Below are positions 27,001 to 39,000 of a stretch of 42,903 nucleotides of DNA, piece after piece. Each line of letters starts with the position of its first letter. Positions within the stretch are counted from its first letter, which is position 1. The DNA is from a virus (lineage: Duplodnaviria; Heunggongvirae; Uroviricota; Caudoviricetes), in the IMG/VR virus record IMGVR_UViG_2681813435_000006, positions 86,927 through 129,829 of that record; one strand, written 5' to 3'. Made by a program: the position numbers.

Positions 27001-30000
27001 TAATTTGAACAGCTCAATAATCTGCTTTTCTTTATCTATTCTATTATTAACGAAATCACTTACTAAAGGTATCCTTACTCCATCAAGTGTGTTGTCTCTT
27101 TTTTCATTTATTAATAAGGTTGCATCTTTAAAATCAGAATCGGATTCAAAATAAGAATCTAATCTCCAATTTGTCCAACCCTTTAATCCAGTATTTTTCG
27201 TAATCGCAACTCCTTCATTTGAAGATGCAGTTATTTCATATTCCCTATCTCCTACTTTAATTTTACTTCCTGCAAAATCCAAATTGCTCCTAGCTATTAA
27301 TCTTCCATTAGCTTGTGTCGTATAGTTTTTTAAACTAATAGGTATGTGCCCATTCTTAGCTTCATATACATCATCAAAGTCGAATTCGTATACATTATTG
27401 CCAATAGAAATATTATCATTATCTTCAATGGGGGTATTATTAAATACTAATTTGGCTTGTGCAGGGTTAGCATCTGCACTTACATCTACTTTTATATTGC
27501 TTTTATCTAGCTTTTTCCAGTGATTCTCATCCCATTCTTCATCAGTATTTGTCTTAATGCATTGGTATAAAATCCCACTTTTATTAACTATTGTTCCATC
27601 TATATATTTAAATCCTTGCGTCCATTGTTTAACATTTTCATTTACAATTCCATCACCTGTATCGAATTCAAATATCTTATCACCTATCGTTACGATTTCG
27701 CTATCAAATACTGTTCCTGTAAATTTTAATATACCTTTACCACTAGAGCCATTACAAAAACTTGTAACTTCTCCACTATTACTTCTATTTGTTATTTCTA
27801 AGCTACCATCACTTATTTTTTTAATCCAAATATCTGGTTTTATATCTATATCCCCATAATTTGGTATTATTATTTCTGTTCCATCCTCATTGTTTTCACT
27901 TAAATCATACGTTTCACTCAAATATTCTCTACTATAGGCATGATAAGTATTACATCTCATAGTTATGTCTAAATATCCTTGTTCTAGCCCAAAATGTGTC
28001 ATTTCAACATCATCAACAGGCATAGCATAATAAATCTTTTCAGGGTCTTCAGAAAAATATAATGGCTGATAATTATCTTGATGTAACCATCTAGCCACTT
28101 CTCTAATTAATTCTTTATTCCATTTTTCTGTGAAACAAAATTGTAATTTAAGTTGTAATGGATTTCTTTCTATTCCTTGAAAATAAGGCTTATCAGCCTC
28201 TATAGTATTTATTTCTTTTATTTTCTTATTAGCTAAAAAATTTTCTTTTAATTCTGCATTATCTACAGAACCATTTATAATATTAAATTCTAAACTATCT
28301 CTACCTGCATAATTGAAATATAAACTGCTCTTTATCAAAAACCATCACCTCTCTTTAAAAAGAAAAGGATACAATTAAAATTGTATCCTTAATACTTTCC
28401 TCTATTTCTAAGAGTATTTATTATTTTAGTAGCAAAACCTTGAGCTTCATTTTCTGTTCCATACATTTTATCAATATGAAAATTTATTTCAATATTATTA
28501 TTGTTACTAGTTGCCATTGCGGGTTGTAGATTTCTATTCATTCCATACCCAAAATTATTTATAGGTAAGGTATTAACAAAATTATATAATTTCTTACCTT
28601 GTTCTGCGTTAAATATAGTCTCTACTGCATTAGGATTCCCATGAAGCATAGCTTTTCCTGTAAAATCTGCAACTCCACCTTTATCATAATAACCTTTAAT
28701 ATCGCTCATGGTATTTGCATAATTAGCTATCTCACTCTCAGTCTGATATCTATCTTTACCAAATAACCATCTCGCTTGACTATTATAAATTTGCTCCTTA
28801 CCATCCATAGTGCCACCAACAACAATGTCATTCGCTGTTAATTGAACATCCCTAACAGAATTAGTATCTACAAATTGATAACCTAATTTAGTTAGATATT
28901 TCTTAGCTGCTTTCAAATCATAACCAGTTCCATATACTTTTCCATATTTAGACTTAGGAACATAATTAGCTTTATTCATAGCATTTAAATCGATTAATGC
29001 TTTATTTCTTATTTGATTATATGTATCATTTCTATCATTTCCACCTAATCTAGTAACACCGTCTACCTGAACCTCCCATGACTAAAGTCACGGAGTTCTT
29101 GGTCAATAACACTAATGTGTTAAGTATCACCAAGCTATCCCCATAGTTCCTACGGTTCTTATATATATTATTTTTATTCTTATATCTTATTTACACACTT
29201 ACATACTTACTACTTTTTTATTATTAATTATTCTTAAACCTTCATTTAAAATATTAATACTAGCATTATAATCTCTATCTATTACTAAACCACATTTCTC
29301 ACAGATATATGCCCTTACTCCTAAGTCTTTAGTTTGTTGTGATTGATTGCCACAATCGCTACATAATTGACTAGATGGATAAAATCTATCTATTTGTTGA
29401 TATATTTTACCGTACCATTTTGTTTTATATTCTAATTCTCTATTAAACTCAAAGAAACTTGCATCTGCTATACTTTTAGCTAACTTATGATTTTGTAATA
29501 TTCCACTTGTATTCAAATCTTCCATGCAAATAATATCATAGTTATTAATAAAATCTGTAGTTAATTTTTGAAGAAAATCTATTCTACAATTATAAATTTT
29601 TTTATGATATTTGTTTACTTTTAATCTTTGTTTATTTCTATTATTGCTACCTTTTTTACGTTTACTAAGTTTTCTTTGAGCTTTTATTAATTTATCTTCA
29701 TATCTTCTATAATATTTAGGATTAGAAATAACTTTATTATCACTTGTAGTTGCAAACTCTTTTATTCCTAAATCTATTCCAACTACTAAACCTGTTTTCT
29801 CTTTATTTTCTTGTGGTACATCTACACAACACAAACTAATATAATATTTACCATCTGTATCTCTTGATAAAGTAGAACTAACTATTCTACCTTGATATTG
29901 TCTTGAATAAGCTATTTTTACTTGTTTTAATTTAGGTAATTTAATTTTACAATTTTGCTTCTTATATTTACCTGTAGATGTGTATTTTATTTCTTTTTCT

Positions 30001-36000: not shown

Positions 36001-39000
36001 TATAAAACTCTAAGGACTTCCCCGTCAATTTAAGCATTTTTAAATATACATTACTGCATACTCAGGCACACATTTTACCTGCTAAACTTTTAGCTATATC
36101 TGCTTTTTGTAAGTCATTGAATTCTTTCCACTTTGGCTTTAACTCCTCAACAACTTGTGAGAATTCTTTAAAATGATACTTATCTTTTCTTAGTGCAACT
36201 CCTACTTTATCCAATGACTTTTCCACATTAGATATAGTTACACCATCATCAACGTTGATATTTTGTTTAATGTCTTGGAATCTTGCGAAAATTGTTTTAA
36301 AGCTTTCTCCTATAGATTCCGCAGATTTTCTTGTTGTTGCCGAAACTGTAGCCACATAAGATGCCAATGTCTCAAAGCTTACTCCTGCCATTTGTGCTGA
36401 AGATGCTGTTCTCATCATAGAGCTTGCAACTTCTTGGAATGAAGTAGCAGAAGCATTATCCAATGTTGAAATAGTGTCAATAACGTGCATCACAACTTCT
36501 TCATAACTTTTACCATCTTTCTGTGCTTGTTCAGTCATGTTACTAAAACCATTTGTTATAGCAATTAATTGTTCCGAAACCGCTTCAGTAGTTTGACCAG
36601 ATATCGCTCCACCTATAGTTGAAGCCGCCAACAATCCTTTTGTCTCTTCTATGCTTCTACCAGCTCTAAGAAACTCTTCTGCACCCATTAATTATTTATA
36701 AATTAATCAATAGACTATATCATGCTTATTAGGTTAAGTCCTCGCACTTCCACCCACAGAATTTCGCTATGGATGTACTAACAGTGTTAATTCACTCTAC
36801 TTCCTTATTCACATAAACAACCCTAATTACATTTATGTTATGGTTTCGATAGTCGTTTAACGATTATATATTTAAAAATAAATATAATTTCGCACAGGAT
36901 TAGATTTCTCTTCCCCTGTTAGCCTATTCATTAACAAATTATTTCCCATTTGACCTTAACGTTGAATAGACACCCTAGATTTCTAGGTTCACGAGGTTTT
37001 ACATGGGCAGTGTGCTTTGTCCACCCATCATTTCTAATGTAGTAGTATGTAATTGACCAGCCAATTTACTATATTCCCCTGTTAAATCAGCAACTTCTTT
37101 TTTATTCATATCAGCTATCATAGCAATATTAGTTTGAGCCTTATCTAAATTAGATATAAACCCAATACCATCTTTGACTTTGTGGATAGCTTCCATCCAA
37201 GCTGTAGTAGCTCCTATCCAAATGGGAAACTTTGTCATTGCCTCACCAATAGAAGCTAATATACCTCCATTTCCCTTTTTACCACCACTATTTACAGAGT
37301 TCTCTAATTTATCATATTCATTTTTTATAACCTTCAATTGCCTAGCGTATTCTTCAGGTTCTTTTGAATTTGCTAATTTATCCATTTCTTCTCTTAGTTT
37401 TTTTAAATCAGCTTCTTTAATTAATTTCCCATAAGAATCTGTTAATTTTTTTATTTTATTTTCATATCCTTGAATTGCCACTGGAGCATCTTTCATTATC
37501 TTTTCTTTTTTCTTCATTTCGGTGTTATTTTCTTTAATTGTTTTATTTTCAAAATTCATTTTACTAATCAAAATATTAAGTTCATTTTGAATACTTTTGC
37601 TCATAGATTCACCAGATGATTTTGTTTTATCAATTAATGTCTGTGCTTGTTCAAGATTTTTAATAAACAATTGACTTTGGCTTCCATCACCTAGTTTTAT
37701 ATTTTTTTCATTCAATTTATCTATGGTTTTCTGATATTGTTCTAATGTTTTTATACTTTTTTGTACATTTTCAGTAGTATTAACACCTGTATTTTCTAAA
37801 GATAAGCCTTTATTTATAACATTTTCTTTTCTTTTTATATCTTCTTTTATTTTATATGCCTGCTCAACTAATTTATTATCATTATCTACATAACTAATTT
37901 TTGCACTTTGAATTCTACCATTTCCGTTTTCACTAACCTTTAATTTAGCTATAGAACCAGTTAATTCTTCTATCTTTTTTCTTTCTTTTTCCAATGATTT
38001 AATTATTTTATCCTGATCTTGTAATCTTGTATCAGTCACAGCTTTTAATTTATCAATATACTTTCCATCATTACCTATATTTTTAAATGATTTATCTATC
38101 TCGTAATTCTTTGTTATAACATTTCCAGCTTTATCTTCATACTGAGCTAAAGCACCTATTATCTTTCCATAATCATCTTTTATAGAATTAACATTTACAT
38201 TAGACCCTATATTTTTCAAATTATTTTTTATTTTATCTATTTGTTGTTCAAATTGTTTATTTACATCATCAAAAGTCTTTATAAATGTTTGACTAGACTG
38301 GTTACTAGCTTTAATAATTTCTTGCTGTAATTTATTTATTTGTTGTTGCATCTTATCTAAAGACATTCCATCAGAAAAATCTAGTTTTATTTCACTTTTT
38401 TCTCCTACTTCTTTTAATAAGTTTTGAACCTTATTATTTAATGAATCAAAACCTTCTAAAGTAAACGAAGTATGTATACCCAAACCCATTTTAAAATTCC
38501 TCCTTTCATATTTTGTTTACTTTAATTATATTTACATAATATTTTTTATGTAGATATATTAAGTAAAAATAAAAAGACATTATGAAAATGCCTTTAAATC
38601 TTAATTTTATGCAAAATAAAAAAACTCGTAACTTTAATTTTGTTAAGAGTTTTATTGTATGTTATTATCTATTTTTATTATTTGTTTGTATATAACCTCT
38701 CTATTTCTTACATTTCAATATAAACTTTACGAAATCGAAGTCTCAAGTGTTCATATAACATTTAATCTCAATTTTATTTAAACAATCTCATAAATTGGTA
38801 CGGAGATATAGACACAATACTTTCACCATTTTTATTTTTAACATTAACTTCTTCAAATAAATCACAATTAATACTTACTATATATTTAGCATTTCCATCT
38901 ATAGCAAGATTAATAAGTTTATCATCTGATTTATCTTCTAAATATTGTCCATCCGCTTTTACAACAATATGTTTTGCACAATTACATATGAAGAAAGACA

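Follow-up and report, generated by a model that had tools for sequence, protein, structure and literature searches.

How does a phage make its tape-measure protein (TMP) when the gene for it lies in four pieces? The stretch analysed here, which we call the window, comprises 42,903 nucleotides (nt) and is the final 42.9 kb (positions 86,927 to 129,829) of the 129.8-kb IMG/VR provirus record IMGVR_UViG_2681813435_000006; its G+C content is about 25%. According to the listing of open reading frames (ORFs), four minus-strand ORFs at 36999-38489, 36062-36688, 31230-35747 and 28389-28979 are the raw pieces of a tape-measure gene. We propose that two group I introns without ORFs and one group A IStron interrupt this gene in phase 0, and that three ribozymes restore the mRNA for a protein of 2408 aa. 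We put the probability of this reading at about 0.8.

A sequence-only reading had joined four exons (38489-37023, 36685-36077, 35705-31233 and 29066-28389) in phase 0, and our analysis gave the same result. The joined frame has 7227 nt, encodes 2408 aa and contains a single, terminal stop. The exon lengths of 1467, 609, 4473 and 678 nt are each divisible by three, and the interruptions between the pieces measure 337, 371 and 2166 nt. The junction peptides that had been predicted, MMG/GAEEF, KSLAG/THQRENF and GVNFD/VDGVTRLGG (here and below a slash marks the join), are reproduced by the joined frame. As had also been read, all three intervening sequences are preceded by U and have G as their last base, and the first ORF has 496 aa, the length given for the unspliced first product. 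The exons are the following:

37023-38489, minus strand: exon 1, aa 1-489; phrog_4211 (tape measure), aligned without gaps to the uninterrupted C. botulinum protein P0002
36077-36685, minus strand: exon 2, aa 490-692, the PhageMin_Tail core; PF10145 (E 6e-20), gapless against uninterrupted homologs across both exon ends
31233-35705, minus strand: exon 3, aa 693-2183, which carries the lytic domains NlpC/P60 and SLT; PF00877 (1.8e-30), PF01464 (5.5e-29), phrog_4211
28389-29066, minus strand: exon 4, aa 2184-2408 and the stop codon; runs on from exon 3 in P0031, L021 and L022

Exons 1-3 all fall in the tape-measure family phrog_4211; for exon 4 the only match, a weak one, was to phrog_4197, another tape-measure family. 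The gene has the PF10145 domain, the great length and the position just upstream of Dit that mark a TMP of the TP901 / PhageMin_Tail type, the next gene downstream (25279-28338) being Dit-like and encoding 1019 aa. The tail-gene order in relatives is of the SPbeta Yom type, and proteins identical to those encoded in the window were found in many Clostridium botulinum and C. sporogenes assemblies, frequently on contigs of ~200-210 kb. All four pieces are confirmed as parts of the tape-measure protein, and we read the gene as the yomI-like tape measure of an SPbeta-like Clostridium botulinum/sporogenes phage-plasmid or prophage.

The predicted joins can be compared with relatives in which the same sites are empty. 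In the related locus L021, the DNA is continuous exactly at all three joins. In a second locus, L022, it is continuous at joins 1 and 3, and an insertion carrying an HNH gene occupies the intron 2 site. At the protein level, P0002 (92% identity, gapless over aa 1-618) spans junction 1 uninterrupted, and P0031 (82% identity, aa 619-2408) spans junctions 2 and 3. Because relatives that share 81-92% protein identity with the window product carry continuous DNA exactly at the predicted joins, the match is far beyond chance. A natural uninterrupted homolog of 2427 aa (P0152) aligned with aa 3-2405 of the joined product in one high-scoring segment pair at 56.5% identity. Eight distant phage or prophage loci with an uninterrupted gene gave a gapless alignment through junctions 1 and 2, both of which lie inside strongly conserved motifs. 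Judged by L021, L022, P0002, P0031 and P0152, precise removal restores the reading frame and the conserved sequence for all three interruptions. The alleles also differ at the junctions: junction 2 has GGU where an intron is present (window, L022) and GGA in the empty L021, and junction 3 has TTTGAT in the window and TTCGAT in the empty alleles. These differences fit the splice-site and target requirements.

The uninterrupted relatives also bear on the explanation that the pieces are made as separate polypeptides, which would form a split tape measure without RNA splicing. A possible start codon is present in each piece in the ORF lists, and public annotation treats the pieces as genes. However, the breaks fall inside the conserved PhageMin_Tail domain, the relatives and the 2427-aa homolog encode one chain, and the interruptions are ribozymes, not intergenic spacers. 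We regard a split tape measure as barely conceivable.

In a group I intron, the 5' splice site follows a U that is paired to G in helix P1, and the intron ends in G. Such an arrangement was found in all three interruptions, whereas the sequence-only reading had described P1 pairing for introns 1 and 2; the U.G wobble lies at the 5' splice site in each. In intron 1, AUGGGU/GG pairs with CUGCCCAU over 8 bp, with the final exon U opposite G. In intron 2, CAGGU pairs with GCCUG, and in the third interruption UGAU/UG pairs with CAGUUA. The four-exon model proposed earlier and the group I nature of the interruptions are supported by the empty-site alleles, the uninterrupted 2427-aa homolog, matches to the Rfam family Intron_gpI (RF00028, gathering score 50) and covariation. 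An intein, a group II intron and frameshifting were rejected, since stop codons lie in frame within the inserts, the cores are of group I and every join is in phase 0.

The first interruption is as follows:

36686-37022, minus strand: intron 1, a group I intron of 337 nt without an ORF; 8-bp P1, terminal G, partial Rfam match and covariation; absent from L021 and L022

Intron 1 matched Intron_gpI only partially, from P4 to P7 (20.6 bits, E 0.014). Its relatives were found by BLASTN in 50 phage records, and each of the five that were fetched lies between the halves of a split gene or between consecutive unnamed genes. One splits nrdD in Clostridium phage CS01 and has an HNH gene inside, another splits nrdD in Enterococcus phage EFP01, and a third splits yonO in the SPbeta-like phage Goe11. 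In an alignment of seven sequences, a long-range helix that we take as P3 is fully paired in 7/7 although the helix sequences differ, and helix C is paired in 6/6. P7.2 and P7 show compensatory changes (GACUA with UAGUC, GACCA with UGGUC, GGUCA with UGACC). The group I core of intron 1 is thus supported by covariation in a family of seven members, and its sequence shows recognisable classical P, Q, R and S elements. We preferred the covarying long-range helix as P3 to a canonical P3 immediately ahead of P4, and rejected the latter. The two hairpins between P3 and P4 are at odds with the textbook IA2 topology. On the downstream side of the intron 1 site, 30 nt of the window (36656-36685) show 8 differences from the intron-free L021 and L022, all of them synonymous, and the 30 nt on the upstream side are identical. 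The differences may be a footprint of co-conversion or of target immunity.

The second interruption is of a similar kind:

35706-36076, minus strand: intron 2, a probable group I intron of 371 nt without an ORF; full-length Intron_gpI match, with P1 at the predicted splice site; absent from L021

Here the match to RF00028 covers the full model (1-253) with 32.5 bits and an E-value of 3.8e-6, which is below the gathering score, and the P1 placed by the model coincides with the predicted splice site. P/Q/R/S-like elements can be recognised in the sequence, together with a P7 of 7 bp. The BLASTN relatives of intron 2 occupy sites between genes or within split genes in phages of Bacillus (PBS1, the RNA polymerase beta gene of AR9, SPO1-like phages) and of Staphylococcus. 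The insertion of L022 at the same site (12390-13683) has the P1 region and the 3' end in common with intron 2, the first 34 nt and the last ~70 nt being shared; it differs in the middle and carries a gene with an HNH-associated repeat. Ends and core of these two insertions appear to have been exchanged as modules.

The third interruption is of a different make, and its parts are the following:

29067-31232, minus strand: IStron, group A, IS605 type, 2166 nt; preceded by TTGAT, with TCAG as its end; L021 and L022 lack exactly this segment, and at least 24 public contigs have it at the same position
31195-31216, minus strand: left-end subterminal hairpin, inside the P1 extension (sequence reading and fold)
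30847-31181, minus strand: ribozyme core, group IA2-like; Intron_gpI, 63.5 bits, E 7e-16
30756-30777, minus strand: 5' arm of the stem closing off the insertion sequence (IS) part; exact reverse complement of 29149-29170, 23 nt after GAACGA (30800-30805)
30549-30749, plus strand: Cro/C1-type helix-turn-helix (HTH) gene of 66 aa, antisense, at the tnpA position; PF13443 HTH_26, E 2.3e-17; conserved in all copies fetched
29199-30392, minus strand: tnpB, RNA-guided nuclease of 397 aa with OrfB_IS605, TNB and HTH_OrfB domains
29067-29170, minus strand: 3' stem arm, right end with putative omegaRNA scaffold, and 3' splice site (inverted repeat and fold); UCAG, then exon 4
29073-29095: right-end subterminal hairpin, similar in sequence to the left-end hairpin

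Tourasse (2014) described group A IStrons as inserted 3' of TTGAT (or ATTAT/TTTAT) and ending in TCAG, with the IS part after P9.2 and GAACGA and a stem around the ORFs (PMC4227781). The edges of the third interruption read ...AACTTTGAT/TGAC ... GGTTCAG/GTAGAC, which agrees with the group A target and end. The IS part follows GAACGA and is enclosed by the perfect 22-bp inverted repeat, the subterminal hairpins are present at both ends, and TnpB stands for ORF B. ORF A, which is optional in group A, is missing, and the HTH_26 gene lies at its position. The first ~400 nt gave the Intron_gpI match over the full model (1-253), above the gathering score, and the U.G pair is flanked by pairs within P1. 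The sequence-only reading had treated this interruption as a self-splicing intron; the TTGAT/TCAG edges, GAACGA, the 22-bp stem and TnpB identify an IStron.

The ribozyme of the IStron is 81% identical over 98% of its length to a Clostridioides phage site, and it resembles sites in Twort/K-like Staphylococcus phages. Its TnpB matches ISDra2 TnpB (8H1J, 8EXA) over the full length with an E-value of 1e-73, and has identical residues at the positions that we take to be the catalytic D, E and D of ISDra2. The target-adjacent motif of ISDra2 TnpB is TTGAT. By analogy with the IS605 literature, the right end of the IStron would act as omegaRNA. As an IS605-family transposon in which TnpB is joined to a group IA2 ribozyme, the third interruption takes a different route and moves as DNA. 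The antisense HTH gene may regulate tnpB or the element. At 2207-3467 on the plus strand, the window holds a second TnpB gene, of 378 aa, followed by a RAGATH-18 RNA (3399-3467, 65.7 bits) that is probably its omegaRNA. Upstream there is no room for a ribozyme, and we therefore regard this locus as the plain remnant of an IS605-type element, not as an IStron.

In the mechanism that we propose, the late transcript would fold three ribozymes. Each of them would use guanosine, cut after the U of the U.G pair in P1 and join the exons after the terminal G. The product would be an mRNA for one 2408-aa tape measure with the NlpC/P60 and SLT wall-degrading domains. The parts of the IStron lie in the order 5' group IA2 ribozyme, antisense HTH gene, tnpB and omegaRNA-type right end, and its 22-bp stem would loop out ~1.6 kb (the HTH gene and tnpB) and so return the distant 3' splice site to the core. 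If self-splicing restores one full TMP mRNA, the elements would cost the phage little. The exon structure, the exact empty sites of relatives, the ribozyme cores, the P1 pairings and the IStron hallmarks are observed; we infer that splicing does occur, and efficiently enough for virions.

Several observations weigh against this proposal. No intron was matched by Rfam in the whole window at gathering thresholds or in an 11-kb scan at E up to 10; the IStron ribozyme was missed in these larger scans because of speed filters, and the matches came from short stretches. Introns 1 and 2 score below the gathering threshold, the P3 of intron 2 has only ~4 bp as read, and P10 pairings, which were sought by eye, are weak for intron 2 and the IStron. 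The provirus record was judged 65% complete. In IS607 IStrons, TnpB and the folding of omegaRNA have been found to repress splicing (bioRxiv 10.1101/2023.11.20.567912), and therefore the IStron step may be inefficient.

Another explanation is that the insertions are dead or poorly active, which would leave the TMP broken and the prophage tail-defective. The Rfam scores of introns 1 and 2 and the incompleteness of the provirus are in line with this, and some relatives carry even more TnpB insertions in their TMP and Dit genes, which could mean decay. However, all four exons have kept an open frame in the same phase, and the insertions have intact ribozyme cores, P1 pairings and terminal G. Many strains retain the same interrupted alleles, and all the insertions belong to types designed for removal by splicing. 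A defective gene is therefore improbable in our view.

The published repression of splicing leads to another explanation, in which introns 1 and 2 splice constitutively and the IStron only partly, because TnpB/omegaRNA folding competes for the 3' splice site. Full-length TMP would then be limiting, or a C-terminally truncated TMP (exons 1-3) would also be made. At its start, the omegaRNA region overlaps with the 3' arm of the 22-bp closing stem, which makes partial splicing a live possibility; tnpB is intact, and such antagonism has been published for IS607 IStrons. However, for CdISt1 and other group A IStrons, splicing is reported to suffice for functional host genes (PMC4227781). We consider partial splicing possible but rather unlikely, and prefer the restoration of full-length TMP mRNA by all three ribozymes. 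It has also been considered that the IStron is an inter-phage weapon and a throttle on virion output. TnpB-omegaRNA would be guided by the first exon 4 bases beside TTGAT and would therefore cut intron-free TMP copies in co-infecting or resident related phages, and splicing competition would tune the amount of full-length TMP. We think such a role doubtful. The earlier suggestion that self-splicing could gate tail assembly was speculation, and nothing supports a regulatory gate.

Across the phage family, the TMP gene is interrupted at no fewer than four sites in varied combinations. The window is occupied after aa 489, 692 and 2183, and a further site after aa 618 (ESF/KTIF) is empty in the window and occupied in both L021 and L022. 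The insertion at aa 618 in L021 (3356-5241) has 1.9 kb and a 495-aa ORF of no known family, and that in L022 (11857-12167) has ~310 nt and no ORF. The final ~60 nt of the aa-618 insertion resemble the 3' end of intron 2. L019, a distant TMP homolog from a metagenomic virus, carries a 1.66-kb insertion (9250-10909) near the position that corresponds to aa 610; the 431-aa ORF in it belongs to no known family. Rfam gave no match for the L022 insertions, the aa-618 insertions of L021 and L022 or the L019 insertion, and for this reason we do not call the L022 and L019 insertions group I introns. Elsewhere among C. botulinum strains, TMP exon 3 and the Dit-like gene are broken by additional TnpB genes, each accompanied by a small ribbon-helix-helix (RHH) gene in antisense:

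L031 and L033, 83-1508: TnpB with RHH gene
L032, 8289-9194: TnpB with RHH gene
L033, 7632-9194: TnpB with RHH gene

Elements of this sort accumulate in the tail module of the phage family. The same split alleles recur in many C. botulinum assemblies. It had been expected that automated annotation would call the gene a pseudogene; public records instead list separate genes of many lengths, under the names 'hypothetical protein', 'phage tail tape measure protein' and 'transglycosylase SLT domain-containing protein'.

Two other features of the window were recorded. A PIN-domain gene (38774-39229, minus strand) lies just upstream of the TMP start, and the same region of L021 and L022 has PemK-type toxin genes. 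At 42785-42903 on the minus strand, three tandem hairpin units of ~40 nt match the Fusobacteriales-1 RNA with 98.7 bits in this clostridial element, and the match runs off the window end. A Fusobacterium host, considered because of this match, was rejected, since the identical proteins carry the names Clostridium botulinum/sporogenes.

With the gene model corrected, one TMP of 2408 aa replaces at least four separately named genes in many C. botulinum/C. sporogenes assemblies, and these prophages therefore need not be scored as defective. The locus is also a compact natural case for comparing splicing efficiencies, because two classical group I introns and an IStron with an RNA-guided nuclease lie in one essential late gene. 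The occupancy, which differs from strain to strain at four or more sites, adds to its value as a natural comparison.

Group I introns occur in yonO, nrdD and bnrdE/F of SPbeta-family and other Firmicute phages, and also in nrdD of T4. Intron 1 has conserved blocks and covarying helices in common with the nrdD elements of CS01 and EFP01 and the yonO element of Goe11. However, it has no endonuclease ORF, and it lies in a different host gene and therefore has a different P1.

Tourasse and Kolsto (2008) have described the group I introns TMP-IVS1, IVS2 and IVS3 in TMP genes of Bacillus cereus-group prophages (PMC2504315). As in the window, these introns are of IA subclasses, occupy several sites in a prophage TMP gene and vary in occupancy by strain. 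Up to two are present per gene, most are without endonuclease genes, and a single site, with the same P1, can be used by different introns (PMC2504315). In contrast, an SPbeta-like phage of Clostridium is involved here, its TMP has roughly double the length, and the gene contains three interruptions, one of which is an IStron.

IStrons have been described from Clostridium, from Fusobacterium and from phages of C. botulinum (PMC4227781, PMC1924603). The group A IStrons CdISt1, FnISt1 and FnISt2 (Tourasse 2014, PMC4227781; PMC1924603) share with the window element the TTGAT target, the TCAG 3' end, the 5' IA2 ribozyme, the IS part after P9.2 and GAACGA, the stem around the ORFs, TnpB as ORF B and the missing tnpA. 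However, the stem in the window has 22 bp against 6-10 bp in the published elements (PMC4227781), the antisense Cro/C1 HTH gene is at the tnpA position, and the element sits in a phage structural gene. CbISt3 and CbISt4 (C. botulinum phages c-st and D-1873) and the CboIStron of Zedaveinyte et al. (10.1101/2023.11.20.567912) are likewise phage- or plasmid-borne in C. botulinum, and their ribozyme is similar to that of the window IStron at the DNA level (72% identity). However, these elements are of the IS607 type and group B, with a GG-ending target and a CGG end, whereas the window IStron is of the IS605 type. The combination of two plain introns and an IS605-type IStron with HTH cargo in one SPbeta-like clostridial TMP gene is thus new as an instance, but not in kind.

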